Program-made: the position numbers and the translations under genes | In this document: piece after piece, positions 7,279-61,596 of the stretch | How the letters are laid out: each line of letters begins with the position of its first letter | Position numbering within the stretch: the first letter of the stretch is position 1 | Source: Peptococcaceae bacterium BICA1-8 | Lineage (GTDB): Bacteria; Bacillota; Peptococcia; Peptococcales; BICA1-8 | DNA: 64,000 nucleotides | NCBI GenBank assembly: GCA_000802045.1 | Contig: JUEF01000135.1 | Coordinates: forward strand, 8,287 to 72,286 | Direction: 5' to 3' | Notes under the pieces: generated by a model | Told to the model about the DNA's origin: nothing | What the model saw: the letters and a program-made list of their open reading frames with translations, nothing else | Databases searched by the model: none

Positions 7279-8004
7279 ATGGACAATCTAAAACAAAAAA
7301 AATATAAAGACCTATTGGAAAAACTTAAAGGGGAGTATAGTGAATTAATTAACTCATTAGAACAAGGATTAAATGATCCAATGAGTTGGACAACTTCAGA
7401 GCTCTCTTTATATGATAACCATCCTGCTGATGTAGCTAGTGAAGTTTATGAAAGAGGGAAAGACATCGGCTTTAAAACTTACGCTTTAGAGCAGATTGAA
7501 AAGGTAGAAGATGCTTTAGAAAGATTAGAACAAGGGAAGTATGGCACTTGTGATAAATGCGGCCAGTTTATTCCTGAAGAAAGGCTAGATACAATTCCCT
7601 TAACAACAATGTGTGTTAAATGTCGAAAAGAGGAATGGGAGGATGGAACCCAATATAACCTAAAAGCCAGGAGACCTGTAGAAGAAGAAGTGGTAATGCC
7701 GCCCTTTGGTGGGGAAACCAACGATACCTTTGAAGACAAATTAGGACAAGGATTAGATCTTAATGAATTCGATGGCGAGGATTCTTGGCAAGCCGTTGCC
7801 CGTTATGGCACTTCTGAGTCCCCTAGTGATATAGGAAGTGTCCTCAATTATAACAATACATATTATGATTATGATGAGGATATAGGAACAGTGGAGACGT
7901 ATGAACAGATTCCCGTATACAAGGATGAGGATGGGCAGTTTTATCAAGATTTTAAAGGATTAGATGATGAGGATGGACCACCCGATGCCCATGATGAAGA
8001 TTAG
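7279..8004 (+). CDS. DksA/TraR C4 zinc-finger protein, YteA/YlyA-like, with acidic C-terminal tail
   Basis: CDKCGQFIPEERL...CVKC zinc finger. Position upstream of lspA matches Bacillus ylyA synteny. Confidence 0.8.
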   Translation: MDNLKQKKYKDLLEKLKGEYSELINSLEQGLNDPMSWTTSELSLYDNHPADVASEVYERGKDIGFKTYALEQIEKVEDALERLEQGKYGTCDKCGQFIPEERLDTIPLTTMCVKCRKEEWEDGTQYNLKARRPVEEEVVMPPFGGETNDTFEDKLGQGLDLNEFDGEDSWQAVARYGTSESPSDIGSVLNYNNTYYDYDEDIGTVETYEQIPVYKDEDGQFYQDFKGLDDEDGPPDAHDED

Positions 8005-8014
8005 GTAATCTATT

Positions 8015-8599
8015 ATGTATTTATATGCGGATCGAATTATACTCCAAATATTAGCATTTTCCTTAGGACCATTTTTAGGATTACTAACCGCAGCATTTGT
8101 TAACCCTTGGGCAGGTATAATTATTGGACTGACAGCCTTTATATTTATATTTTTTCAGCCGTTTTTTTCTGATTGTTGCTTGAAAAATACTGCAAAAGAC
8201 CTCGGGTTAGAAAAAATATTACTAGCTGAAGGTAATGTAAAGTATTATTCCAGAAGTTTAGATTTAACAGGAAAACTATATCTTTGTCGGGACAAGATAA
8301 CCTTCGTCATAAATAATAAGGTGGACATTATTCTGCCAGTAGAAAAAATTTTAAAGGTGCAGGGGGAAACTGAGCAAATCGATGAGGAAGCTCTCAAGTT
8401 AACTCCTATGTTTGAACGAAGATCCCCCAATCTTCCTCAAGTTACTCAGATGGTTACGGAAATAGCTGTGTTAAACTGTGGTATCTTACAGATAACTGTT
8501 GAACAGAGTATTTTTAGCAATGAATTCTGCTTCGAGGTATCTGATATTAATCTATGGGTAAAAAAGGTAATTGAACTACAAAAAAGCCGGGCGCTGTAA
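8015..8599 (+). CDS. Hypothetical membrane protein (two N-terminal TM helices plus a soluble domain)
   Basis: ORF with a hydrophobic N-terminus. No family recognised. Confidence 0.55.
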   Translation: MYLYADRIILQILAFSLGPFLGLLTAAFVNPWAGIIIGLTAFIFIFFQPFFSDCCLKNTAKDLGLEKILLAEGNVKYYSRSLDLTGKLYLCRDKITFVINNKVDIILPVEKILKVQGETEQIDEEALKLTPMFERRSPNLPQVTQMVTEIAVLNCGILQITVEQSIFSNEFCFEVSDINLWVKKVIELQKSRAL

Positions 8600-10921: not shown

Positions 10922-11833
10922 TTGGTTAATGATAGCATTAGGGTCTTTCTGGCGGTAGCAGACAAAAGGAACTTTTCTAAGGCTGCTAAATCCTTGTTTT
11001 TGACCCAACCTGCAGTAAGCTTTCAGATTCAGATGCTAGAACAATATTATGGCACAGTCTTATTTGACAGAGTCAATCGCAATATTACATTAACATCTGC
11101 TGGTGAACTCCTATTGAGTTATGCGCAGGAATTAAGTACTCTTCAAGCAAATCTTGAAAGAGAAATGCAGGAGCTTACCGGTACAATTAAGGGTAGGTTG
11201 ATGCTGGGCGCTAGCACAACCATAGGTGAATATGTTTTGCCCTACCTGGTAGGAGGATTTAAAAAGCAATTTCCCGAAGTTGACGTAAGCTTAGTGGTAG
11301 CTAATACTGAGGATATTGAAACAAGTATTCTCAATACTACTTTAGATGTAGCATTAGTAGAGGGTCCTGTGAGTGGTAAAGATCTGAATACGGAGAAGTT
11401 TCTTGATGATGAATTAGTATTAATTACTCCGATGGATCACCCTTGGGTAAATAATAAAAGAATCTCTGTTTTTGAGTTAAGCCAATATCCTTTTATCACT
11501 AGAGAGAAAGGTTCAGGAACAAGGCATATTATGGAGAATGCTTTTAAAAAGGTGGGTTTTAACCCAAATAATCTGAACATTATAATGGAATTAGGTAGTA
11601 CTACTGCTATTAAAGCAGCAGTATCTAGCGGATTAGGTGTTTCAATCATTTCTGAATGGGCCGCTAAGGATTTGGTAAAACAAAACAAGTTGGCGACTAT
11701 AGCTATACATGAAACAAAGTTTGAACGCCAATTTACTGTTATTTATCATGAGAAAAAATTTAGAACAAAGGCTGCATATGAATTTCTAAACTTTTTGCGT
11801 AGTGAAGAGGTCCATGATATGCTAAAACAATAA
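10922..11833 (+). CDS. LysR-family transcriptional regulator (paralog 1, YeiE-like context)
   Basis: HTH region FSKAAKSLFLTQPAVSFQIQMLE. Start set by alignment to paralog 2 and a GGGGG RBS; the ORF track starts at 10916. Confidence 0.85.
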   Translation: MVNDSIRVFLAVADKRNFSKAAKSLFLTQPAVSFQIQMLEQYYGTVLFDRVNRNITLTSAGELLLSYAQELSTLQANLEREMQELTGTIKGRLMLGASTTIGEYVLPYLVGGFKKQFPEVDVSLVVANTEDIETSILNTTLDVALVEGPVSGKDLNTEKFLDDELVLITPMDHPWVNNKRISVFELSQYPFITREKGSGTRHIMENAFKKVGFNPNNLNIIMELGSTTAIKAAVSSGLGVSIISEWAAKDLVKQNKLATIAIHETKFERQFTVIYHEKKFRTKAAYEFLNFLRSEEVHDMLKQ

Positions 11834-11858
11834 TTTATTAATAAGGCAGGGAACGTTC

Positions 11859-12746
11859 GTGCTGATACGTAATAGTCTAAGTAAGGTTTTAAGGGAAAAA
11901 GAGATAACATTAGCACAACTAGCAGAGGAGAATAACATCCCCATAGCAACCTTAGAACAAATTTATTTAGGACACAAAGAGTTTACTCCTGAAATCTTAA
12001 ATAAAATAGCAGATTACTTAAATATTTCCCAAGAAGCTATATTATTTGACAGTAAAAAAAATATTTATGATAATATTGGTATCCAGCTCAGACAAATTAG
12101 GGAAGAAAAGAAGATGACCTTAATTCAATTGGGTAAAATATCCGGTGTTTCTTATACTCATATCAGTGAAATTGAGCGAGGGAAAACCTGCGCTTCCCTA
12201 AAAACTTTAGAAAAACTGGCCATAGTTTTAGAAATTCCTACAAGATATTTTTTTCAACTTGAGGAAAATTTTACCTTGGGTGATAAAGTAAGAAGGTTAA
12301 GGGAGAAGCAGAATCTTACCCAGGTTCAGCTAGCAGAAAAATTTGGTGTATCCCTAAGTCTAATAGGGCAAATTGAAACTGGTAGGGTTAAGCCTGCATT
12401 AGATACTTTACAAAGCATTGCCAATGTTTTTGGAGTGAATATTTGTTATTTTCTTATGACAGAAACTGAGGAAATGTCTTTGAGACAGGCGAACTCTGGC
12501 TGTGCAACTTCCTATGATAAACTTATAGAATTAACTCAAGGAATTCAGCCCCAAGGTTTTGCTTTAATAATTGATTTAATAAATGTATTAAAAACCCACA
12601 ATCGTTTTAATATCAATGATGAAATTATAAATAACCAGACTAAAGAACTATTAGATATTATGGCTGATCTTTCTGAGGATGATAAAAATTATATTATTGA
12701 AAACGCCCGTTGGGTTTTAAAAAAAGCAAAATCAAATACGCAATAA
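11859..12746 (+). CDS. Protein with three tandem XRE-type HTH domains plus a ~90-aa C-terminal domain
   Basis: Three repeats of the XRE pattern: ..ITLAQLAEENNIPIATLEQIYLG.., ..MTLIQLGKISGVSYTHISEIERGK.., ..LTQVQLAEKFGVSLSLIGQIETGR... Confidence 0.8.
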   Translation: MLIRNSLSKVLREKEITLAQLAEENNIPIATLEQIYLGHKEFTPEILNKIADYLNISQEAILFDSKKNIYDNIGIQLRQIREEKKMTLIQLGKISGVSYTHISEIERGKTCASLKTLEKLAIVLEIPTRYFFQLEENFTLGDKVRRLREKQNLTQVQLAEKFGVSLSLIGQIETGRVKPALDTLQSIANVFGVNICYFLMTETEEMSLRQANSGCATSYDKLIELTQGIQPQGFALIIDLINVLKTHNRFNINDEIINNQTKELLDIMADLSEDDKNYIIENARWVLKKAKSNTQ

Positions 12747-20330: not shown

Positions 20331-21662
20331 GTGAAAAATAATTTAGAAGACTATTATGTGAATATCAAATGGATGGCTTTTGTTATTCCAGTCCTATGGG
20401 TAGGCATTTATGAAGTGTTACGGTTTCAAATTCTAGGCAATATATTTACGCCAATCATTAATAGTGTCATATTAATATGTTCAGTTGGTTTTTTCGGACT
20501 TATTTTTTCGGCATATTTGTTTAGAAAGATTAGGACTATTCATAATTCACTTTTTTTAGAACAGCAAAAACTGAAAACTATCTTTCATCATACATCTGAC
20601 GGAATTATCGTTTTAGGAGAGAATTGTCAGATCCTTGATATCAACCCAGCCGTAGAAAAATTAACAGGGTGGAAAGCTAAAGAGGTAATTAAGAAAATTA
20701 CTTGTGAAGAAATGAACCGGTGTTTAAAGAGTACAGAGGCCTGTTGGAATTCTCAAAATCCCGAAGGCTGCATGAATGTAGACTGTGGGCATAGGGAGTG
20801 CTGGGGTAAGACTTGCCTGGAAAAACAAATTTCAGTTCCCCATGTAGAGATGTGTCTTGTTTGTAAAAATGGTAAGAAAATTAAGGTTGCCGCCAGTTAT
20901 TCTTACATACCTGCTGTAGGCGAGGAAAAGCCGTTGGTAAAGCTTGTTCTAAGAGATATCTCTGAAAAAAAAGAATTTGAAAAGGCTATTCAAAATTATG
21001 CTACTTTAGAGGAAAGATACAGACTAGCCAGAGAAATGCATGATGGATTAGCGCAAGCTTTAGTTTATTTAAATATTAAGGCTTATAATATTCAAAAGAA
21101 TTTAGAAAAGCATGGTAACCATGATTCTATTATTAATGACCTAGTTGAAATAAGGCAGGTTACCCAGGAGGCTGTTAATGAAGTCCGTCAGAATATTTTT
21201 GATTTAAAAACACCTCCTAGAGATGAAACTAGTTGTTTTAGGGTATGGATTGAGGATTATCTAAAAAACTTTGGTTTTATAAATCATTTAGATACTGAGT
21301 TTTTCTGTAATTGTCAGGCAGCACTTATATTACCTACTGATGTCAAAGTTCAATTAATTAGGATTATTCAGGAGGCTTTAACTAATATCAGAAAGCATGC
21401 TCGAGCTACAAAAATAAATATCTTTTTAACAAAGAATGAGAAGAAATTAATTATTAAAATTACTGATAATGGAAAAGGTATTGATTTAACTACTCTAAAT
21501 ATGGACACAAAGGAACATTTCGGATTAACTATAATGAAGGAAAGAGCTCAAATTATCGGAGGAGATATAAAAATTATTCCAGGTGAAGCCCGAGGAACTC
21601 TTGTAGAATTGACTTTGCCATTGATTAATGGATATGAAAGAAATAATAGGATAGCAAATTAG
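20331..21662 (+). CDS. Membrane sensor histidine kinase, HisKA_3/NarL-partner type, with a PAS-like domain carrying a nine-Cys insert
   Basis: Two N-terminal TM helices, H-box REMHDGLAQAL, and HATPase motifs (DNGKGI, GLTIMKERA). Cys-rich segment encoded at 20703-20864. GTG start. Confidence 0.85.
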   Translation: MKNNLEDYYVNIKWMAFVIPVLWVGIYEVLRFQILGNIFTPIINSVILICSVGFFGLIFSAYLFRKIRTIHNSLFLEQQKLKTIFHHTSDGIIVLGENCQILDINPAVEKLTGWKAKEVIKKITCEEMNRCLKSTEACWNSQNPEGCMNVDCGHRECWGKTCLEKQISVPHVEMCLVCKNGKKIKVAASYSYIPAVGEEKPLVKLVLRDISEKKEFEKAIQNYATLEERYRLAREMHDGLAQALVYLNIKAYNIQKNLEKHGNHDSIINDLVEIRQVTQEAVNEVRQNIFDLKTPPRDETSCFRVWIEDYLKNFGFINHLDTEFFCNCQAALILPTDVKVQLIRIIQEALTNIRKHARATKINIFLTKNEKKLIIKITDNGKGIDLTTLNMDTKEHFGLTIMKERAQIIGGDIKIIPGEARGTLVELTLPLINGYERNNRIAN

Positions 21663-22526: not shown

Positions 22527-23399
22527 ATGGAATTTCCTCAATGGGATATTCTAATTATCGGTTGTGGGCCCGCTGGGCTTTCAGCGGCGGTAAATGCGAC
22601 AATTCGTAACAAAAAGGCAATAGTATATGGCGGAGAGTTTTGCAGTCCCAAGCTTCATAAAGCTCCACATGTCAATAACTATTTAGGTTTCTGGGATGTA
22701 TCAGGAGAAGAATTGCGGAAAAAATATCTCAATCATGTTCAACAGTTAGATATAAAAATGGAATGTCATAAAATTGATAATATTTACCCTGCCGGGAAAT
22801 CTTTTAATGTTGTCAGTAAGGGCAATATGATTATGTGTAATGCAATAATAATTGCAGTAGGCTTGCAAAATCCTAAATACCTGCCAGGAGAAGAGGAACT
22901 GTTGGGCAAGGGTGTGGGTTATTGTGCTACCTGTGATGGCCCTTTGTATAAAGGGAAAAAGGTTGCAGTAATTGGTTATAACACAGAGGCAGAGGAAGAG
23001 GTTAACTATTTGGCCGGGTTAGCTAGCCAAGTTATATATCTTCCGTTGTATCAAGGGCTAGGAAGTATCGACAGTAGAGTTCGAATTTTAAATGAAAGAC
23101 CCAAGGCTCTATTAGGTACAGATAGATTACAAGCACTAGAAACGGAAGGGGAAACCCTAGAACTAGATGGATTATTTATTATTCGGGATAGTGTTCCTCC
23201 AGCTCAGCTTTTGCCTGGCTTGGAGCTTGAGGAAAACGCAATAGTAGTAAATAGAAAAATGTCTACAAATATAACCGGTGTATTTGCTGCCGGTGACTGC
23301 ACCGGTGCCCCTTATCAGCTGGCCAAAGCAGTAGGTGAAGGAGCAGTTGCAGGACTAAGTGCTGTGAGTTATTTGGAAGAAATGAATAAGGGAAAGTAG
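22527..23399 (+). CDS. Thioredoxin-reductase-like flavoprotein with a CATC redox motif but no recognisable NADPH-binding motifs
   Basis: IIGCGPAGLSAA FAD fingerprint and a CATCDG active site. The position of GGGxSA reads GYNTEA, and no HRRxxxR motif follows. Confidence 0.8.
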   Translation: MEFPQWDILIIGCGPAGLSAAVNATIRNKKAIVYGGEFCSPKLHKAPHVNNYLGFWDVSGEELRKKYLNHVQQLDIKMECHKIDNIYPAGKSFNVVSKGNMIMCNAIIIAVGLQNPKYLPGEEELLGKGVGYCATCDGPLYKGKKVAVIGYNTEAEEEVNYLAGLASQVIYLPLYQGLGSIDSRVRILNERPKALLGTDRLQALETEGETLELDGLFIIRDSVPPAQLLPGLELEENAIVVNRKMSTNITGVFAAGDCTGAPYQLAKAVGEGAVAGLSAVSYLEEMNKGK

Positions 23400-23496
23400 G
23401 GGGGCGCATTGCGCGTCCTACCTCATTCTCTTGTGTAATAATCATCCTGTGAATATGATTAGGCATAATCATATGTTTTTCAATAGTAACACCTGC
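23396..23496 (-). pseudogene. Remnant of an IS200/IS605-type (COG1943/RAYT-like) Y1 transposase; HUH strand only
   Basis: The minus-strand frame reads AGVTIEKHMIMPNHIHRMIITQENEVGRAMRPP. MPNHIH is the HUH hallmark. The frame is bounded by a stop upstream and runs into the antisense of the TrxR-like gene. Confidence 0.5.
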
Positions 23497-23570
23497 TCAA
23501 AATTTTGAATCAAATTATCAATTTTTTACTGATATTGGATGACCCACTGACGCGCAATGCGCGCCCCTAC
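23396..23570. mobile_element. 175-bp element bounded by 22-bp inverted REP-like hairpins, containing an HUH-transposase fragment
   Basis: GTAGGGGGGCGCATTGCGCGTC at 23396. The reverse complement of 23549-23570 is GTAGGGGCGCGCATTGCGCGTC (21/22 identical). Confidence 0.65.
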
Positions 23571-23598: not shown

Positions 23599-25389
23599 TC
23601 AGAGCCCGGTATCTTTTTTGAGTAATTCTAAAGCTTTTTCTTCATCAGGTGTAATATAAATGGTTTTTTGGTTTTCATATATTACCATACCTGGTTTTGC
23701 TCCCCCGGGTTTTTTTACATGTTTTCTTAAAGTATAGTCTACAGGTACCTGTGCGGAATAACGTCCCTTGCTATAATAGGCTGCAAGATTAGCGGCTGTG
23801 TCTAAGATGCTTTTGGGAATTTCTTTTTTATCAGGATTTTTAATAATTACATGGGAACCTGGGATATCCTTGACGTGGAGCCATAAGTCATCATTCTTAC
23901 CTAACTTAAAAGTTACATAGTCATTTTGTTTGTTGTTTTTTCCAAGCAATATCTTATAATCTGAAATAGCAATTGCTAGGGGCTCTGACTGAGCATTACT
24001 TTTAACCTTATTTTTATTTTTTTGCGGCCGGGCTTTAACATACCCGGCTTCTTCTAATTCCCATCTAATATCCTGCAGATCCTGGGGATTATCAGATCCA
24101 TCTAGACTATTCTTAATGCTTTCCAAATAACCTAATTCTTCAATTGTGATTTTGCTTTGTTCAAGGGTTTTTTCGGAACCTACTTTGGCTTTACTGTACT
24201 TTTTAAAATACTTTTGCGCATTTTCATTAGGCGTTAAGTTTGGTTCTAGAGTAATAGCAATATTCTCCAATTCCTCTGAGTAAAAATTGGAAACTATTGC
24301 CTCTTGCCCTTGCTTGAGATTGTGCAAATTTGCAGTAATAAGTTCTCCCCATAATTTATATTTGGCGGCTATCTCAACCTCTGCGATTTTTTCCAGCTGC
24401 AGAGCTAATTTACGCTGGCAGCGGTCTAGTTCTCTATCAATTATTTTATCTAGGTCTCCGGATTTTTGTTTAAAGAAATTTGTTTCCTCACTTTTACCGA
24501 TGAAAGATTCTATCAAATCACCCATAGAAGAATGTGTTTCTTGTACTAAACCGTCAAACTGCTGCAAGGAAAAGGGAGCAAAAGCAAAAGGCTTGCCCTC
24601 AGTATCTCTGACAAGTGTTGGTTGGTATGTCTGGGATAATATCAGGGTTTTTAACCAGTTTAGACTTTTCCAAAGACTTAAGTATTCATATTCACCTAAA
24701 AATTCCAGACTGTTTTCCAAATCAATTCCAGCTCGAACAGTTAATTCTTTAGCCGTTTGGGGTCCAAAACCTTCCATTATATTAAGTAAAGCTTTATGAA
24801 CCTTTTGTTCGGGGGGCAGATTTTGAAATCTCTCAACTAGGGTTTCTTCAGTTATTTCCTCAAGCTTAACTTTTTCCTGGGGTGGTGGAGAAATATAAGG
24901 GGCCCCCGGTAGTATTTCGCGGTATTGATTTACTGCATGACTTAAGCGTTTAATACTATCAAGAATTATTCTTTCGTTTTGTTTTATCAAAATTAGATTA
25001 CTGTGTTTTCCCATAAACTCTCCGATGAGAATTTTACTCACCTTATCTCCTAATTCATCAAAACCTTCTAATATAAAGTGAACAATTCTTTCTAAACCTT
25101 GTTGTTCAATATTTACAATTTTACTACCTTCTAGGTGCTTTCTCAGAACCATACAAAACAAGGGGGGCTGGAGAGGGTTTTGTCTGGCAGTATTGGTTAA
25201 ATTGAAGCGAGCACTTTGGGGTTTTACGGTAATTAAAAGCCGTAGGTTTTTACCTGGCTGTCTAATTGTCATAACTAGAGTATTGTGATCAGGCTGTTGT
25301 ATCTTATCTATTCTACCGCCAATTAACTGAGGCTTCAGTTCATCAACTAAAGCTCTTATGGCTATACCGTCTAATGACAAGTTAGTCAC
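23599..25389 (-). CDS. rqcH: NFACT-family ribosome quality control protein (fibronectin-binding protein A / YloA)
   Basis: 596 aa. N-terminus LDGIAIRALVDEL...RIDKIQQP and a C-terminal DUF814-type region. AGGAGGTG RBS. yloA-yloB synteny. Confidence 0.85.
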   Translation of the reverse strand: MTNLSLDGIAIRALVDELKPQLIGGRIDKIQQPDHNTLVMTIRQPGKNLRLLITVKPQSARFNLTNTARQNPLQPPLFCMVLRKHLEGSKIVNIEQQGLERIVHFILEGFDELGDKVSKILIGEFMGKHSNLILIKQNERIILDSIKRLSHAVNQYREILPGAPYISPPPQEKVKLEEITEETLVERFQNLPPEQKVHKALLNIMEGFGPQTAKELTVRAGIDLENSLEFLGEYEYLSLWKSLNWLKTLILSQTYQPTLVRDTEGKPFAFAPFSLQQFDGLVQETHSSMGDLIESFIGKSEETNFFKQKSGDLDKIIDRELDRCQRKLALQLEKIAEVEIAAKYKLWGELITANLHNLKQGQEAIVSNFYSEELENIAITLEPNLTPNENAQKYFKKYSKAKVGSEKTLEQSKITIEELGYLESIKNSLDGSDNPQDLQDIRWELEEAGYVKARPQKNKNKVKSNAQSEPLAIAISDYKILLGKNNKQNDYVTFKLGKNDDLWLHVKDIPGSHVIIKNPDKKEIPKSILDTAANLAAYYSKGRYSAQVPVDYTLRKHVKKPGGAKPGMVIYENQKTIYITPDEEKALELLKKDTGL

Positions 25390-25436
25390 CTCCTAATTTG
25401 CAAGTATACCATATTACTCACGGGTTTAGCTAGCAG

Positions 25437-25574
25437 GTCGGAAATACTTAGGGTCTAGCTTGAGCGTCTGACAATACTATGGGGACAAATTGTTGCGTCT
25501 GACATCGCTAATGGGTTGAGTTTTAGGGTCTGACAGTACTATGGGGACATTTTATTGCGTTTGACACTAGCTTT
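25437..25574 (+). repeat. Array of five ~31-bp units with GTCTGACA core (direct orientation)
   Basis: Core starts at 25437 (degenerate), 25466, 25497, 25528 and 25559. Spacings are 29, 31, 31 and 31 bp. Confidence 0.9.
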
Positions 25575-25584
25575 GAGATTTTTT

Positions 25585-25660
25585 CTGGGTACTGAACCCT
25601 GGGCCCTGGACACTAAGCACTTGAACACCGAGCACTTGAGCACAGCGCTCTGGACACGAA
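25585..25660 (+). repeat. CTGGG(T/C)ACTG...GGACACGAA low-complexity cassette (GAGCACT/GGACACT words)
   Basis: CTGGGTACTGAACCCTGGGCCCTGGACACTAAGCACTTGAACACCGAGCACTTGAGCACAGCGCTCTGGACACGAA. Confidence 0.85.
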
Positions 25661-25772
25661 TTTATCAGACGAGATATCTTCGCCCAGAAGTATGATCCCA
25701 GAAGTAAATGTCATTTTTCCCTTGATATTTGAATAAAAATTACTTAGTACTCTGCAAAGTGAGGGGAAACTT

Positions 25773-28526
25773 ATGGCAAATAGATTTTGGTACAATATGC
25801 ATGATTTAAAAGTTTTAGAAGAATTTCAGGTTGATGTAAAAAAGGGTCTAGACTCAAAAGAGGCTCAGCGCAGGTTGGAGTTGGTGGGTTTTAATCAATT
25901 GCGGGAAAAAGTAAAAACATCACCAATTAAAATGTTTTTTAATCAGTTCAAGGATTTTATGGTTATCGTGCTTTTAGCAGCTACAATTATCTCTGGTTTT
26001 TTAGGGGAGTATGCTGATGCTATTACCATAATGGCTATAGTCATTCTTAATTCAATTTTAGGTTTTGTGCAGGAATACCGAGCAGAGAAGTCTATGGAAG
26101 CTTTAAAAAAATTAATAGCTCCTGAAGCAATGGTTATCAGAGATGGTATAGAAAAGAAAATCCCTGCCCGGGAACTAGTTCCAGGTGAACTGGTTTTATT
26201 AGAAACCGGTGTTATAATTCCTGCGGATTTGCGTTTATTAGAAACAATTCAAATGGAAATAGAAGAATCTTCTTTGACTGGTGAATCTGTTCCTGCTAAA
26301 AAAATAGCCAGTGCAATATTTGAAACAAATACCAGCTTAGGTGATAGGAAGAATATGGCCTATATGGGTACTACCGTAACCCGGGGCAAAGGAATGGGCA
26401 TAGTTGTTGATACTGGTATGCAAACGGAAATGGGGCAGATTGCGGGACTAATTCAAAAGGTTGGTGATGAACAAACTCCGCTCCAAAGAAGGTTAGAACA
26501 ATTAGGCAGATGGCTAGTAGCTTTTTGTCTGTTAATTGTGCTGGTAGTTGTTGTTACAGGAATTCTCCGGGGTGAGCCTATTTACCAAATGTTCTTAGTG
26601 GGAGTCAGTCTGGCGGTGGCTGCTATTCCTGAAGGATTGCCTGCAATTGTTACAATTGCTTTAGCCGTAGGAGTTCAAAAAATGCTTAAAAGAAGAGCAA
26701 TTATTAGGAAGCTGCCTGCAGTAGAAACCTTGGGATGTGCCACAGTAATATGTTCTGATAAAACAGGTACCCTTACTCAAAATGAGATGACAGTGCGCAG
26801 GATTGTTATTAGTAATGAAACAATTCAAATTACAGGGGAAGGTTATGATCCTAAAGGAGAGGTGGTTGTTCCCGGGGATAAATCCCGTATGATGAGGAAT
26901 AAGGAATCCTTAAATATAGCCTTTAAAATTGCCGCCTTGTGTAATAACTCAAAGCTAAGAAAAACAGAAACAGTTATAGCCGGAATTTTTAGAAAGAAAA
27001 GCTCGAATCCTTGGCAGGTTTTAGGAGACCCCACTGAAGGAGCTCTCCTAGTTTTAGCAGCAAAAGCAGGTTTTTGGAGAGAACGTGTAGAAAAAGATGA
27101 GCAAAGAGTTTATGAAATGCCCTTCGATTCTGAACGCAAGAGAATGTCTGTTATCTATCAAAATAAAGATAAGCTTAACATTTATACCAAAGGGGCCCCG
27201 GATATTGTATTAGAAAATTGCAAATATGTTTGGTGGGAAGGGAAAATCGTTCTTTTAAACCGAGAACTAAAACAAAAAATATTAGAAAATAATGATAAGA
27301 TGGCTAATGAAGCCCTTCGAGTTTTAGCTCTAGCTTATAAACAAATTTCTGCCAATTTTGACTATGAAAGAAATGAGGCAGAGATTGAAAATGACCTGAT
27401 TTTTGTAGGATTAGCTGGAATGATTGATCCGCCCCGTCCTGCAGCAATTAAAGCTGTAGCTGTATGTAAAAACGCAGGGATAAAAACAGTTATGATAACC
27501 GGGGACCATAAAATCACTGCCCAGGCAATTGGTAAAGAACTAAAAATTTATAATGATCAGGACCTTATTTTAACGGGCAGCCAATTAGATGAAATGCCAG
27601 ACCCGGAATTAAATAAAATTATTAATAATGTAACCGTTTATGCCAGAGTATCACCAAAACATAAGCTCAGGATTGTTAAAGCCCTCAAAAAGCGGGGACA
27701 TGTGGTTGCAATGACAGGGGACGGAGTAAATGATGCCCCAGCAATTAAAGAGGCGGATATTGGAATTTCCATGGGAATAAATGGTACCGATGTAACAAAG
27801 GAATCTTCCTCTATGATTTTAGGGGATGATAATTTTGCAACTATTGTAGCTGCCGTTGAGGAAGGTCGGGCTATTTATGATAATATCAGGAAATTCATTA
27901 GATATCTTTTATCCTGTAATGTAGGTGAAGTTTTAACAATGTTTTTTGCTTCATTATTGGGATTGCCTTTGCCTTTATTGCCAATACAGATATTGTGGGT
28001 TAACTTAGTAACTGATGGATTGCCAGCAATGGCTTTAGGTGTTGATACAGCTGATCCTGATATCATGTACAGAAAACCTAGACATCCGAAAGAAAGCATT
28101 TTTGCCTATGGCTTGGCTAGACGCATAGCAGTAAGGGGAACATTAATAGGTGTCGGTACCCTTTTAGTATTTATGATAGGTTATTACTTAAATAAGAATT
28201 TAGATATAGCTAGAACTATGGCTTTTACAACACTTGTTTTCTCCCAGCTGTTTCATGTTTTTGATTGTCGTTCGGAAAAATATTCTATTTTTGAATTAGG
28301 CTTTTTCACCAACCCATTTTTAGTAGGCGCCGTAAGCTGTTCGGTAATAATGCATTTAATGGTAATTTATTTACCCTTTTTCCAAAAAATATTCAAAACT
28401 ACTCCTCTCTCTTTTAATAGCTGGCTGATTATAATTGCCGTTTCCGGTGGGTTAACAATTATGCAGAACGTGTATCGGAGCTTGAAAAGATATTATTTGA
28501 ATTTAGGGAGAACATTAAGGGCTTGA
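25773..28526 (+). CDS. yloB: P-type Ca2+-transporting ATPase (SERCA/YloB type)
   Basis: CSDKTGTLT phosphorylation motif plus TGDGVNDAPA, TGES and PEGL motifs. 917 aa. Confidence 0.9.
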   Translation: MANRFWYNMHDLKVLEEFQVDVKKGLDSKEAQRRLELVGFNQLREKVKTSPIKMFFNQFKDFMVIVLLAATIISGFLGEYADAITIMAIVILNSILGFVQEYRAEKSMEALKKLIAPEAMVIRDGIEKKIPARELVPGELVLLETGVIIPADLRLLETIQMEIEESSLTGESVPAKKIASAIFETNTSLGDRKNMAYMGTTVTRGKGMGIVVDTGMQTEMGQIAGLIQKVGDEQTPLQRRLEQLGRWLVAFCLLIVLVVVVTGILRGEPIYQMFLVGVSLAVAAIPEGLPAIVTIALAVGVQKMLKRRAIIRKLPAVETLGCATVICSDKTGTLTQNEMTVRRIVISNETIQITGEGYDPKGEVVVPGDKSRMMRNKESLNIAFKIAALCNNSKLRKTETVIAGIFRKKSSNPWQVLGDPTEGALLVLAAKAGFWRERVEKDEQRVYEMPFDSERKRMSVIYQNKDKLNIYTKGAPDIVLENCKYVWWEGKIVLLNRELKQKILENNDKMANEALRVLALAYKQISANFDYERNEAEIENDLIFVGLAGMIDPPRPAAIKAVAVCKNAGIKTVMITGDHKITAQAIGKELKIYNDQDLILTGSQLDEMPDPELNKIINNVTVYARVSPKHKLRIVKALKKRGHVVAMTGDGVNDAPAIKEADIGISMGINGTDVTKESSSMILGDDNFATIVAAVEEGRAIYDNIRKFIRYLLSCNVGEVLTMFFASLLGLPLPLLPIQILWVNLVTDGLPAMALGVDTADPDIMYRKPRHPKESIFAYGLARRIAVRGTLIGVGTLLVFMIGYYLNKNLDIARTMAFTTLVFSQLFHVFDCRSEKYSIFELGFFTNPFLVGAVSCSVIMHLMVIYLPFFQKIFKTTPLSFNSWLIIIAVSGGLTIMQNVYRSLKRYYLNLGRTLRA

Positions 28527-28552
28527 CATTTACTCACAGGTTAATATATTGG

Positions 28553-28655
28553 GTCTGACATATGCTTGGGGGTGAAATATCGCGTCTGACAATACTCCTG
28601 GGTGAACATTTTGCGTCTGACATTTTACTTTTGGGTTGAGATGCTGCGTCTGATG
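28553..28655 (+). repeat. Array of four ~31-bp GTCTGACA units (direct orientation)
   Basis: Cores at 28553, 28584, 28615 and 28648 (the last reads GTCTGATG). Confidence 0.9.
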
Positions 28656-28658
28656 AAT

Positions 28659-28696
28659 GGTGCTCTGTGCTCAGTGCTCAGTGTCCAGTGCCCAGT
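28659..28696 (-). repeat. Heptamer block GTGCTCA/GTGTCCA, the inverted copy of the CTGGGCACTGGACACTGAGCAC cassette
   Basis: The reverse complement reads ACTGGGCACTGGACACTGAGCACTGAGCACAGAGCACC. Confidence 0.85.
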
Positions 28697-28707
28697 AAAA
28701 AACTAAT

Positions 28708-28872
28708 AAAGCTAGTGTCAGACGCAATAAATTGTCCCCATAGTACTGTCAGACCTTACAGCTTAACCCATGAGTAATTGTCAGACGCCCAAGCTAGACC
28801 CTTGAGTATTGTCCGACCCTAAAACTTAACCTATAAGTAGATGTCAGAAACGCAAAAGCTAGACCCCTAAGT
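28708..28872 (-). repeat. Array of five ~31-bp GTCTGACA units in inverted orientation
   Basis: TGTCAGAC-type cores at 28716, 28747, 28779, 28810 (TGTCCGAC) and 28842. 28708-28755 is 46/48 identical to the reverse complement of 25527-25574. Confidence 0.9.
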
Positions 28873-28885
28873 AGAAAGGAAGTGT

Positions 28886-29734
28886 TTGAGAGTGAATTTT
28901 GTAAAAATGCATGGAGCAGGAAATGATTTTATTTTAATTAATTTATTAGAGGGAAATTCGCCGTTAGATTATTCCTTACTGGCTCCTAAGCTTTGCGACC
29001 GGAATTTTGGAATTGGTGCTGATGGACTTTTGTTCATTATGCCTTCCGAGACCGCTGATATTAAAATGAGGATTATTAATTCCGATGGTAGTGAAGCTGA
29101 AATGTGTGGTAATGGTATTAGATGTTTTGCAAAATTTGTTTATGAAGAGGGAATAATTAATAAAAATATAATAGAAGTAGAAACCCTAGCGGGTAAAATC
29201 ATCCCGGAAATTATTTTAAATAATAACAAAGTAGCTTCTGTCCGAGTTGATATGGGTGAGCCTAAGCTAGAAAGAAGCCAAATTCCAATGTTTGGAGAAG
29301 AGGGACGGGTAATTAAGGAGAAGTTAGTGATTGCTGAGAAAGAATTTGAAGTCACTGCTGTTAGTATGGGTAATCCCCATTGCGTTATTTTTGTACCTAA
29401 TATAAAAGAGATAGAAATAGAAAAATGGGGTCCTTTAATTGAAAAGCATCCAGTTTTCCCCCGAAAAACAAATGTAGAATTTGTCCAAGTTATTACCCCC
29501 TCTGAGGTTGTTATGCGAGTATGGGAAAGGGGTGCAGGCATAACTTTAGCCTGTGGTACAGGAGCGTGTGCAACCTTAACTGCGGGTGTTCTAAATAATT
29601 ATATTAATAGGAAGGCTTCTATAAAATTACTTGGTGGTGAATTAACTGTTGAATGGGAAGAAAATAATCACCTCTATATGACAGGTCCGGCGATTGAAGT
29701 ATTTCGCGGGGTAATTAGTATAGGTAGTCTATAG
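28886..29734 (+). CDS. dapF: Diaminopimelate epimerase
   Basis: FVKMHGAGNDF N-terminus and catalytic Cys motifs (MCGNGIRC, ACGTGACA). Start is TTG 28886 or GTG 28892. Confidence 0.9.
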   Translation: MRVNFVKMHGAGNDFILINLLEGNSPLDYSLLAPKLCDRNFGIGADGLLFIMPSETADIKMRIINSDGSEAEMCGNGIRCFAKFVYEEGIINKNIIEVETLAGKIIPEIILNNNKVASVRVDMGEPKLERSQIPMFGEEGRVIKEKLVIAEKEFEVTAVSMGNPHCVIFVPNIKEIEIEKWGPLIEKHPVFPRKTNVEFVQVITPSEVVMRVWERGAGITLACGTGACATLTAGVLNNYINRKASIKLLGGELTVEWEENNHLYMTGPAIEVFRGVISIGSL

Positions 29735-29773
29735 TCGATAGTCCATAATCGATAATTATAGCGAAAATTAGCT

Positions 29774-30778: not shown

Positions 30779-30888
30779 AATAGTGTGACGGCTATGTGGC
30801 TTACTGAATGACAGTGTGTAAGCTTAAGGGATATACAAATTGTCAGTGCTACAGTGCTACAGAAATTTAGTTGGTTTGTTTATTCTCC

Positions 30889-30916
30889 TAGTCACTAGTC
30901 ACTAGTCACCAGTAAC
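30889..30916 (+). repeat. Heptamer tandem TAGTCAC x3 plus a degenerate fourth unit, 18 nt upstream of the remA start
   Basis: TAGTCACTAGTCACTAGTCACCAGTAAC. An octamer pair AGTGCTAC x2 lies at 30845-30860. Confidence 0.9.
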
Positions 30917-30933
30917 TATATAAGGAGGGCAAA

Positions 30934-34708: not shown

Positions 34709-34966
34709 TATTAAACCACGGGCCCCAATGGGGCACACGGATAAATGTCCTGTTCTATCAGGTATTCTTTGTAGGGGCGCGCATTGCGCGTCCGACTTCA
34801 CTTCTTAGTCCATAATATGCTAAAATACAATTAACAAAAAATATCACCATGGACCATTCGCCAAACTAACATGACACAAAACGTCATCAACAGAATATGA
34901 ATATAGTTTAATCCCTAAATAATTAATCTGCGTTAACCGTGTGCCCTGTAGGGGCCCGTGGTTTGA
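34709..34966. mobile_element. Second MITE/BIME-like element (258 bp) with the same inverted ends as 8620-8810 and a nested GTAGGGGCGCGCATTGCGCG hairpin
   Basis: Left end is ATTAAACCACGGGCCCCAATGGGGCACACGGATA. The reverse complement of the right end is ATCAAACCACGGGCCCCTACAGGGCACACGGTTA. The interior is unrelated to the 8.6-kb copy. Confidence 0.6.
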
Positions 34967-37517: not shown

Positions 37518-37532
37518 TTAAGATAAATTCGT

Positions 37533-37561
37533 CAATAGACAATAGACAATAGACCAAAGAC
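37533..37561 (+). repeat. Heptamer tandem CAATAGA x3 plus a degenerate unit, in the priA-def spacer
   Basis: CAATAGACAATAGACAATAGACCAAAGAC, followed by a TGTCCCCAGTCATTA word. Confidence 0.9.
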
Positions 37562-37604
37562 CATTCTATATGTCCCCAGTCATTAATCGTTAGGAGAGAG
37601 CAAG

Positions 37605-49991: not shown

Positions 49992-50011
49992 TATATTAAA
50001 GTTAATAATTT

Positions 50012-50121
50012 ACTCTTTCGGGGTTAGGTGCAATTCCTTACCGGCGGTATAGCCCGCGAGCCAAATGGCAGATCCGGTTTAATTCCGGAGCCGACAGTTA
50101 AAGTCTGGATGGAAGAAAGAG
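50012..50121 (+). promoter_or_regulatory. FMN riboswitch (RFN element) aptamer
   Basis: Matches the RFN core: CTCTTTCGGGGTTAGGTGCAATTCCTTACCGGCGGT..AGCCCGCGAGCC...GGTTTAATTCCGGAGCCGACAGTTAAAGTCTGGATGGAAGAAAGAG. The P1 stem closes CTCTTTC with GAAAGAG. Confidence 0.92.
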
Positions 50122-50176
50122 ATTGATTACTATTCATTGCATTTTTGCTTTTGAATGGTAATTATCTTGTTTTATT

Positions 50177-50214: not shown

Positions 50215-50500
50215 GTTTTATTAGTGGGCGAGTGGGCGAGAAGTATTATTTAACCACGGGCCCCTCCGGGGCACACCGATAAACACTGTTAAACGATAAG
50301 TGACTAAATTAATGGTTGATGCATCCCTTAAGTTAGACCTTTGAGCAGATGCATCCTGTAATTTTCACTTGCATCGGGTGCCTCCTAATCGGTGACACGG
50401 TAGCACGTCAAGGAAAGCTAGACATTCATGTTCACACGTCCTTACTAGTCACAGATCCCCGGCCACTGAGTACGAATCCCGAAAGACTGTCCCCTAATAC
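50215..50500 (+). repeat. Composite of dispersed repeat modules between the riboswitch terminator and ribU
   Basis: TAGTGGGCGAGTGGGCGAG (50222-50240). Solo ATTTAACCACGGGCCCCTCCGGGGCACACCGAT end (50248-50281). GATGCATC units (50318, 50348). AAGCTAGAC, TAGTCAC, TACGAATCCCGAAAG and TGTCCCC words (50415-50495). Confidence 0.85.
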
Positions 50501-51087: not shown

Positions 51088-51096
51088 GTTACTGGC

Positions 51097-51125
51097 TAGT
51101 GACTAGTGACTAGTGACTGGTGACT
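51097..51125 (-). repeat. Heptamer tandem TAGTGAC x3 plus TGGTGAC (reverse complement of the TAGTCAC family)
   Basis: TAGTGACTAGTGACTAGTGACTGGTGACT. Confidence 0.9.
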
Positions 51126-51131
51126 GGTAAT

Positions 51132-51166
51132 AAGGCTATAGTCCATTGACTATAGTCTATAGCCTT
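51132..51166. repeat. Perfect 10-bp-stem hairpin made of CTATAG words (possible weak ribU terminator)
   Basis: AAGGCTATAG-15 nt-CTATAGCCTT. Contains the ATAGTCCAT word also seen at 29739, 34808 and 52453. Confidence 0.6.
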
Positions 51167-51276
51167 TAGCCGATAGTCAATAGACTATAGTAGAAGTTTT
51201 TAATGACCTGCTTAGCAGGTCTTTTCTTTATCATAAATTGACTATATACTGATTGTTTTTCATAAAGGTCCTTTAT

Positions 51277-51347
51277 CTGGGCACTAGTCACTGAACAACT
51301 AGTCACTGAACAACTAGTCACTGAACAACTGGACACGAAACCAAAAA
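51277..51347 (+). repeat. CTGGGCACT cassette containing an exact 15-bp tandem repeat x3, ending GGACACGAAACCAAAAA
   Basis: AGTCACTGAACAACT at 51286, 51301 and 51316 (exact copies). Confidence 0.95.
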
Positions 51348-61551: not shown

Positions 61552-61596
61552 AAAAAAGTGACTAGTCACCAGTCACTAGTAACTAGTCACTTTTTT
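61552..61596. repeat. Perfect 15-bp-stem hairpin built from TAGTCAC-family words and flanked by A6/T6
   Basis: AAAAAAGTGACTAGT-CACCAGTCACTAGTA-ACTAGTCACTTTTTT, ending 21 nt before the next start codon. Confidence 0.85.

Follow-up and report, generated by a model that had tools for sequence, protein, structure and literature searches.

The 64,000-nucleotide stretch of contig JUEF01000135.1 from Peptococcaceae bacterium BICA1-8 that was analysed here (the window) carries arrays of a degenerate repeat of about 31 bp on both sides of yloB, a gene for a P-type Ca-ATPase. A reading made from the letters alone (the sequence-only reading) had described three arrays that bracket the ATPase gene. The arrays are present, but they are really the arms of two palindromic elements: both arms of one element downstream of yloB, and one arm of a second, half-decayed copy upstream of it. 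Hence the description of the arrays was largely correct, and their interpretation becomes two copies of a dispersed palindromic repeat element, here called E. E forms a lineage-specific family, dispersed and intergenic, within a Peptococcales-like clade of Bacillota. It very probably falls into the general class of dispersed, mobile-element-derived repeats that resemble bacterial interspersed mosaic elements (BIMEs), doublets of repetitive extragenic palindromes (REPs) that form hairpins (REPINs), or TIRtrons, which are transposase genes within terminal inverted repeats (TIRs). We propose, with a probability of about 0.6, that E is a BIME/REPIN-like non-autonomous repeat family that would depend on a Y1 transposase.

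The core of the repeat, GTCTGACA, matches nine times in the window compared with 0.60 expected matches, and none of 100 shuffles reached nine. All nine exact copies are confined to three clusters, 31-32 bp apart within each. The core positions proposed from the letters were reproduced, the degenerate ones with one to three mismatches:

25466, 25497 and 25528, plus strand: exact cores of the upstream array
28553, 28584 and 28615, plus strand: exact cores of the downstream array
28716, 28747 and 28779, minus strand: exact cores of the inverted downstream array
25437, 25559 (GTTTGACA), 28648 (GTCTGATG), 28810 (TGTCCGAC) and 28842 (TGTCAGAA): degenerate cores

Tandem Repeats Finder, a check that had been suggested, independently called period-31/32 arrays at 25464-25566, 28524-28623 and 28747-28848, and in addition a double unit of 63 nt at 28742-28873. 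The window arrays were recovered, with E-values from 9e-16 to 4e-3, by an nhmmer profile of 62 nt for which only arrays of other genomes had been used. Beyond these it matched two places only: marginally at 25415-25452 (E = 0.098), an extension of the upstream arm, and at chance level in a histidine-kinase open reading frame (ORF) at 20619-20652 (E = 1e-3). The unit spacing is strictly 30-33 bp, mostly 31-32 bp, which is about three helical turns, and the arrays are non-coding and periodic at about 31 bp, as had been claimed.

E is a composite non-coding repeat of about 300-370 bp, an imperfect palindrome with fixed polarity. It begins with an arm of 3-13 head-to-tail X/Y/Z units of 31-32 bp (TACT..GGGTCTAGCTT..GC-GTCTGACA and variants), followed by a short junction (CTAGCTTTGAG.TTTTTTCTGG, also written CTAGCTTTGAG.TTTTTT), a variable heptamer run, the sequence TTTTTATCAGACGC at the start of the W arm, and finally an inverted arm of W units (TACT..GGGTGAACATT.TGC-GTCTGACA). 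The signatures of the X/Y/Z units are GGGTCTAGCTT, GGGTTGAGTTT and GGGGACAAATT, and that of the W units is GGGTGAACATT. The consensus of 178 units of the clade is ATACTTTTGGGTCAAGATTTTGC-GTCTGACA, in which TACT, GGG, AA, GC, the core itself and a T six bases ahead of it (97%) are conserved, and the similarity among units is 60-80%. Independent copies share the arm-specific unit types and the junctions, and the two-arm layout was found in 19 complete copies.

In the window, inverted-repeat pairs I1-I6 connect the arrays, with I1 (25508-25584 and 28698-28774) being 86% complementary. The parts of the two copies are given below, where L-numbers label DNA stretches fetched from other genomes and metagenomes:

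25414..25566, plus strand: X/Y/Z-type arm of the upstream element, five units of 30-31 nt, with orthologous arms in L130, L131 and L169
25413-25443 (degenerate core GGTCGGAA), 25444-25473, 25474-25504, 25505-25535 and 25536-25566, plus strand: the upstream X/Y/Z units
25567..25589, plus strand: inner junction of the X arm in the upstream copy, CTAGCTTTGAGATTTTTTCTGGG, conserved in other copies
25590..25660, no strand: degenerate run of heptamer type at the centre of the upstream element (CCTGGGC / CACTTGA / GCACAG ...)
25663..25708, minus strand: remnant of the upstream W-type arm, one recognisable unit (TATCAGACGAGATATCTTCGCCCAGAAGTA, 25663-25692) and a stub, profile E = 5e-4
28498..28655, plus strand: W-type arm of the downstream element (GGGTGAACATT class), five units
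28656..28696, no strand: centre of the downstream element, the heptamer GTGCTCA about five times (Tandem Repeats Finder 28660-28696, period 7, 5.3 copies)
28697..28715, minus strand: inner junction of the X arm in the downstream copy, the reverse complement of the upstream junction (TAAAAAACTAATAAAGCTAG)
28716..28873, minus strand: X/Y/Z-type arm of the downstream element, five units

The outer end of the upstream arm abuts the -10 and ribosome-binding site (RBS) region of rqcH, and that of the downstream X/Y/Z arm lies 2-12 nt from the dapF RBS (GAAAGGAAG). The two copies are in opposite orientation, 3 kb apart, and both W arms face the ATPase gene. At the upstream site the W arm has two units in L130 and four in L131, compared with one decayed unit in the window. 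The upstream centre is hypervariable among relatives, and Tandem Repeats Finder reports a period of 8 in it at 25616-25643. The first downstream W unit (28498-28528, core-like GCTTGACA) includes the ATPase stop codon at 28524-28526. About nine final codons of the ATPase gene lie inside this unit together with the stop, and the C-terminus reads ...LNLGRTLRA* in the window and L130 versus ...VVY(M/L)(R/K)A* in L131-L133; the ATPase C-terminus has been remodelled by the repeat element. Heptamer runs, which constitute the centres of the palindromic elements, were observed in many spacers (28660-28696, 29725-29754, 30844-30918, 37533-37561, 51096-51330 and 61557-61591). The heptamers include GTGCTCA, TAGTCGA, CTAGTCA, CAATAGA, CTAGTGA and AGTCACT, and the length and sequence of the runs vary among close relatives.

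The predicted RNA fold of 28520-28880 has a free energy of -135 kcal/mol (z = -7.6), and the DNA fold a z of -6.2. The intact downstream copy is thus predicted to be able to form a hairpin with arms of about 150 nt, as RNA or as single-stranded DNA, whereas the upstream copy has lost this fold (z = -0.3). For single X, W and Z units the folding energy is 0 to -0.6 kcal/mol, the level of shuffled sequences. The two arms are only about 70% complementary, while the motif positions stay fixed in both.

A family scan with a three-core pattern, using one genome per species, found at least 16 array loci in the metagenome-assembled genome (MAG) 'Clostridiaceae bacterium BRH_c20a', a sister species of the window organism at about 89% nucleotide identity, and at least three in the Clostridia MAG DJKA51. 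For the window organism itself, two loci were observed within the 64 kb seen. A stricter scan of JGI metagenomes gave, as a complete listing, 72 stretches, about 27 of which came from metagenome Ga0209643. An intergenic bias had been named as something to look for, and 35 of 37 arrays lie outside ORFs of at least 120 aa. Most complete elements span the interval from a stop codon to the next RBS in co-directional gene pairs. The W arm points toward the 3' end of the upstream gene at about four independent loci versus about two, which is not significant. No target-site duplication was found at the outer ends of 19 complete copies, a weak test because the outer units decay and leave fuzzy ends.

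The sequence-only reading had called the repeat a dispersed family, which it said would fall if the repeat proved to be confined to one locus and absent from relatives. Many loci were found, with orthologous copies in relatives, so dispersal and conservation stood. The two window sites cited for related words, 1866-2036 and 50415-50495, did not; they do not match the family profile and are not members. The framing around the ATPase gene also fell away, since the family occupies dozens of unrelated spacers and is therefore not ATPase-specific.

The window copies lie among rqcH/NFACT (minus strand), yloB (plus strand), dapF and yicC, which are followed by remA-gmk-rpoZ-coaBC-metK-priA-def-fmt. 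This gene set is the Firmicute ylo operon (yloA-yloB-dapF-yloC-gmk-rpoZ-coaBC-metK-priA-def-fmt), a chromosomal housekeeping operon, and the order yloA-yloB-yloC is ancestral in Firmicutes. The upstream element sits between the conserved rqcH -10 and the conserved ATPase promoter/leader, i.e., between divergent promoters, and the downstream element occupies the whole stretch from the ATPase stop codon to the dapF RBS. The closest ATPase homologues belong to Peptococcales/Peptococcaceae MAGs and, at 73%, to Desulfonispora. Contigs from SRR1539101 and JGI 3300002838 match the window. Ordered by the amino acid identity of the ATPase to that of the window, the orthologous loci form the following series:

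Desulfonispora, 73%: upstream spacer compact and empty; downstream spacer compact and empty, with a simple stem-loop after the ATPase gene
L133, 78%: upstream copy decayed; downstream spacer empty (122 nt)
L132, 81%: short copies upstream and downstream
L131, 85%: large copies upstream and downstream
L130, 93%: large copies upstream and downstream

Both copies beside the ATPase gene go back to old insertions into two spacers that are themselves ancestral, rqcH-yloB and yloB-dapF, and were vertically inherited. Since the gene order is ancestral and relatives lacking one or both elements keep the same synteny, the idea that the ATPase gene is the cargo of a composite element formed by the two flanking inverted copies was rejected. 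Unit numbers change by duplication or loss of whole units or of three-unit blocks. The upstream X arm has five units in the window, seven in L130 (1457-1662) and twelve in L169 (2790-3160), and L169 reaches its higher number through three copies of a 94-nt three-unit block. The flanks of L130 and L169 are 99% identical despite the difference in units, which may be a strain-level polymorphism or an assembly collapse or expansion of the repeat. The priA-def spacer contains array units in L130 and L132 and none in the window. In these relatives (L130 13550-13733, L132 21299-21405) it holds two array units and a GGGGCATACCTC...GAGGTGTGTCCCC hairpin, and in the window (37520-37590) nothing more than CAATAGA heptamers and a stub of the right-hand side, TGTCCCCAG; the sister species differ in whether the units are present. 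Between the window and L130, the orthologous arms are 89% identical, whereas the ATPase gene reaches 69% at its 4-fold degenerate sites (Fisher p = 2e-11). However, identities from 64 to 92% were measured in the same way for other spacers of the operon, which have no arrays; the excess is therefore not decisive and constraint on the arms is suggestive only.

As for the origin of E, we propose that it is selfish DNA derived from a mobile element of the BIME/REPIN/TIRtron kind. Its units would be tandemly amplified recognition sites, equivalent to TIRs, for a Y1 (HUH) transposase similar to the REP-associated tyrosine transposases (RAYTs), and the RAYT-like enzyme would copy or maintain E in trans. 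Effects on neighbouring genes would be secondary, e.g., the long yloB-dapF hairpin that replaces the simple stem-loop of Desulfonispora. Dependence on a Y1 transposase specifically is suggested with moderate confidence by analogous arrays in other bacteria. The Pseudomonadota MAG bin05 has numerous arrays, often at contig ends, that share the 8-mer, the period and the layout, in which plus-strand units, a spacer and minus-strand units follow one another (+++ spacer ---), and the three-core scan found such arrays in Massilia eurypsychrophila as well. At L097 of bin05, two triple arrays with a 31-bp period flank a 296-aa ORF with a Y1_Tnp domain (PF01797, 4.6e-11) and a C-terminal helix-turn-helix (HTH); its best NCBIfam match, below cutoff, is the REP-associated tyrosine transposase. 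Another Massilia sp. has the orthologous RAYT between single copies of the same unit. The bin05/Massilia unit is GGGGTCAG-GTCTGACA-TTCGGACA, and in Undibacterium and a gamma-proteobacterial MAG the TIR is GGGGTCAG-TTCTAACA-TTCCAACA. In bacteria of the candidate phyla radiation (CPR), a 223-aa Y1_Tnp gene lies between GGGTCAGACACC and GGTGTCTGACCCC at L122, and at L073, a Saccharibacteria contig, four 31-32-nt units that share the core come after a Y1_Tnp gene. The TIRs of a RAYT on a Sporomusa plasmid are GGGGTCAGGCC. Altogether, Y1 genes bounded by inverted repeats were found at the analogous loci L097, L124, L122, L126 and L206/L207, and at L165 in the sister species.

The TIRtrons (TIRYTs) described by Di Nocera, De Gregorio and Rocco in 2013 (PMC3733652) are RAYT-like Y1 genes within TIRs that share GGGGWSAS, and the TIR families are moderately abundant and occur in dimers or clusters. 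The bin05, Massilia and CPR units carry GGGGTCAG and thereby fit the GGGGWSAS of TIRtron inverted repeats (PMC3733652); they flank Y1_Tnp genes or form gene-less dimers and clusters. The sister species has a TIRtron with a GGGGTCAGGC TIR: at L165, two identical 290-aa genes combining Y1_Tnp and Bac_DnaA_C are bounded by 22-nt perfect TIRs (TGGGGTCAGGCTTTTATAATTT). These copies (7378-8343 and 11168-12133, 3.8 kb apart) are insertion-sequence-like units of about 965 bp. At L140 of the sister species, a 157-aa classical RAYT has a four-unit W arm 70 nt downstream, and GTAG REPs upstream of and inside the gene.

Several results weigh against a Y1-dependent family. The RAYT searches covered the window, loci from BRH_c20a/DJKA51 (about 130 kb) and from metagenomes (432 kb), and five orthologous loci with 10 kb on either side; in none of this DNA did a RAYT/Y1 gene have X and W arms on both sides. 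No transposase of any kind lay between the arms in any locus. Searches with tblastn, phmmer and a hidden Markov model of 120 RAYTs found no RAYT in the window, the BRH_c20a/DJKA51 loci or the 10-kb flanks of the orthologous loci; a pattern for an array with a YHxxxRG start at 90-120 nt had 0 matches in the metagenomes; and two RAYT-seeded protein searches returned proteobacterial and CPR clades only. By position weight matrix, 33 of 500 shuffles scored as well as the units against the BRH_c20a L165 TIR, which is not significant, and 5-6 of 500 did so against the CPR and Sporomusa TIRs, which is marginal. The 8-mer that follows GGGGTCAG varies within one RAYT clade (GTCTGACA versus TTCTAACA), and as the shared 8-mer was the search key it may be convergent. 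Single units form no hairpin (dG about 0) and are thus not REPs in the strict sense, and the opposite orientation of window copies only 3 kb apart argues against a strand bias of the strict IS200/IS605 type. Because no Y1 gene was found between the arms at the loci searched, the TIR similarity is not significant and the 8-mer was the search key, the Y1 dependence is less certain than the general class.

A different origin would be a miniature inverted-repeat transposable element (MITE) of a DDE transposon, internally deleted and with multiple subterminal transposase sites as in Tn7, Mu or IS21, whose ends would be the arms. It would account for two inverted arms of repeated sites of about 30 bp around a short centre, and for the asymmetry of X and W arms, which is like that of left and right transposon ends; the unit presumably bears a loose resemblance to TnsB-type sites. 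Yet the 19 complete copies have no target-site duplication, although with fuzzy ends this is a weak test, there is no transposase between the arms at any locus, the unit numbers (3-13) are far more variable than the fixed site sets of Tn7 and Mu, and the only transposase genes found beside analogous arrays are of the Y1 type. Tn7/TnsB-like multi-site ends were dropped for these reasons, and we consider a DDE origin very unlikely. Little probability is likewise given to an RNA element, in which the hairpin after yloB would be selected as a 3' stabiliser, RNase III site or terminator and the repeats would be incidental. The very stable predicted fold of the downstream copy, the fit of most elements between stop codon and next RBS in co-directional pairs, and the Desulfonispora stem-loop at the same position favour it, and REP/BIME hairpins stabilise upstream mRNA (background in PMC3733652). 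It is disfavoured because the upstream copy, between divergent promoters, has lost its hairpin while the remaining arm stays well conserved; moreover, the arms retain the motif and not the complementarity, and neither a U-tract or terminator-like site nor an Rfam match was found.

The retained motif would instead suit a host protein-binding platform, i.e., phased duplex sites bound cooperatively by a nucleoid-associated or regulatory protein that shapes the neighbouring genes. The helical phasing of the units, their lack of individual secondary structure, the retention of TACT, GGG, T at -6 (97%) and GC-GTCTGACA in both arms at a complementarity of only about 70%, and the identity of the window and L130 arms above that of 4-fold sites all agree with such a platform. 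We nevertheless judge it quite unlikely: the arrays, invariably paired as inverted arms, are spread over dozens of spacers that have no function in common, closely related lineages have decayed arrays or none with synteny intact, and the control spacers leave the conservation excess indecisive. To our knowledge, the core is unlike any regulator consensus. The likeness to iterons proposed in the sequence-only reading belongs here too. Plasmid and phage iterons and centromere arrays are direct repeats at helical-phase spacing, sometimes in two inverted sets, and iterons occupy one origin or partition locus beside a rep or par gene. E arrays instead sit on the chromosome, in numerous unrelated spacers, and by BLAST the element had no match among plasmids or phages; the origin-type version of the idea is excluded by the housekeeping-operon context and the dozens of loci. 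In our proposal, the likeliest binder of the arrays would be a mobile-element Y1/RAYT-like protein and not a yloB regulator.

A broader proposal treats the arrays as more than the debris of transposons. Phased arrays with a GTC(T/A)GAC core at 30-33 bp, observed here in Bacillota, Pseudomonadota, Patescibacteria, Planctomycetota and Spirochaetota, might be a cross-phylum class of retained protein-loading platforms. Their ligands would be Y1 proteins of the RAYT-like kind, several of which have a fused DnaA-C/HTH domain, or else a domesticated relative; binding would be cooperative and confined to one face of the duplex, and the host would retain the arrays for the effect of the complex on local chromosome structure or gene expression. 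Such a role would explain why the motif is conserved without arm complementarity and why the arms are more conserved than synonymous sites, as well as the near-identical proteobacterial arms around spacers of constant length and unrelated sequence. We regard it as unlikely, and the arrays would be of greater interest if it were true that they are a conserved Y1/HTH protein-binding platform across phyla.

Two-arm loci of this proteobacterial type were observed in bin05 (L013, L020, L051, L063, L071, L072, L087, L117 and L118) and in Massilia (L019, L027, L068, L076, L079, L100, L102 and L114). Their triple-unit arms are near-identical between loci, and their spacers of 95-125 nt are mostly unrelated in sequence, with a weak shared GGCGARCTCRTCC word in some; since the spacers are nearly constant in length and mostly unrelated in sequence, simple copying of a whole MITE is no explanation. 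Extended arrays in which 30-33-nt units follow one another head to tail, each with GGTGTCTGACACC as its palindromic core, were observed in a Phycisphaerae MAG (L096, L104 and L113), at contig ends, and in Treponema MAGs (L048, L081 and L056). No transposase gene adjoins these arrays in the fetched DNA, and the only RAYT-like fragment there is at the start of L048, about 6 kb from the array.

Compared with known systems, E resembles TIRtrons in having non-palindromic units and a moderate copy number. Unlike theirs, the units of the window clade read GGGT(C/G)(T/A)A(G/A)C..GCGTCTGACA and not GGGGWSAS, they are amplified to phased arrays of 3-13 units with two arm-specific subtypes, and no transposase gene was found between E arms at the loci searched. 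With REPIN-RAYT systems (Bertels and Rainey 2011, PMC3116915; Bertels et al. 2017, PMC5581495), E shares an inverted, hairpin-forming doublet, which is present at the level of the arms (28498-28655 versus 28716-28873), an extragenic location, dozens of copies, vertical inheritance with persistence at orthologous sites, and a presumed mobiliser in trans. However, REPs are palindromes of 20-25 nt with a GTAG tag, whereas the arms of E are tandem non-palindromic 31-nt units. A palindrome of 20-40 nt with an unpaired GTAG/CGTC tag is lacking in E; GCGTCTGACA has CGTC and no adjacent 8-9-bp stem. The REPIN-bearing RAYT groups 2 and 3 were characterised in Escherichia and Pseudomonas, and among Firmicutes the same paper names group 1 RAYTs only, in Clostridia (PMC5581495). 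The window genome also has its own, separate GTAG REP family. GTAG-tagged REP hairpins (GTAGGGGCGCGCATTGCGCGTCC) were observed at 23396-23418 (plus strand), 23548-23570 (minus strand) and 34771-34793 (plus strand), with a DNA fold of -8.5 kcal/mol (z = -3.5). One inverted doublet of them lies between the 3' ends of a Pyr_redox gene and rqcH, and the same REP occurs in relatives; together with the L140 RAYT, these REPs show that a canonical REP system exists in the genome alongside E.

The mosaic repeats of E. coli (BIMEs) and Streptococcus pneumoniae (BOX elements) are built from modules and lie between genes. In BOX, a variable number of tandem boxB units stands between partly complementary ends, and no transposase is known for it. 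E is modular like them, and arrays, heptamer runs and GTAG REPs co-occur in spacers; the sequences are unrelated, however, and in E the arms and not the centre are the tandem arrays. Cyanobacterial short tandemly repeated repetitive (STRR) sequences are heptamer tandem runs in spacers that host or adjoin small mobile repeats. The heptamer centres of E are reminiscent of these runs but belong to another phylum and have other sequences. Among long-lived, vertically inherited replicators in bacterial genomes, REP/REPIN-RAYT systems are the best studied; nearly all known examples come from Proteobacteria and have simple palindromes as repeats. E would extend this theme to subsurface Peptococcales-like Firmicutes with a different anatomy of phased tandem non-palindromic arms, two arm-specific unit types and a heptamer centre. 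The orthologue series, with empty, decayed, short, long and expanded sites, is a natural time course of the birth, growth and death of an element. The same core and period beside Y1 genes in distant phyla provide a hypothesis for recognition by TIRYT proteins that can be tested in vitro. The arrays break short-read assemblies and alter gene ends; annotators should note that the ATPase C-terminus enters a unit.

Known signals were also sought in the arrays. The earlier statement that they are neither terminators nor canonical promoters agrees with consensus scans, which found 6 promoter-like sites compared with 10.2 expected and 2 terminator-like sites compared with 3.6 expected; promoter or terminator arrays were rejected, as the consensus sites are not enriched. 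A sigma-70-like site, TTGACA-16-TATATT (11/12), is made by units d0 and d1 at 28523-28550 and is aimed at dapF; it is probably incidental. CRISPR was rejected because the 31-nt period leaves no spacers, the units are only 60-80% alike and the arms are inverted, and the genes called up to 10 kb from the orthologous loci include no cas gene. A viral-contig scan returned coding-type 15-nt repeats only, and a full-text literature search for the motif strings returned unrelated primers only. A scan of 25300-29000 against Rfam 15 (E <= 5) gave no match to the arrays, and the only match in the window at gathering score is an FMN riboswitch (RF00050) at 50010-50124 on the plus strand, with 116.8 bits. 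The site at 1866-2036 consists of three tandem hairpin units of about 58 nt, GGGACACACCTCC-(20 nt)-GAGGAATGTCCCC, with an RNA fold z of -3.6. It shares short words (AAGCTAGAC, TGTCCCC) with the arrays, whose profile does not match it, and its word recurs in L069, L130, L153, L154, L162 and L189, which makes it a second dispersed repeat family.

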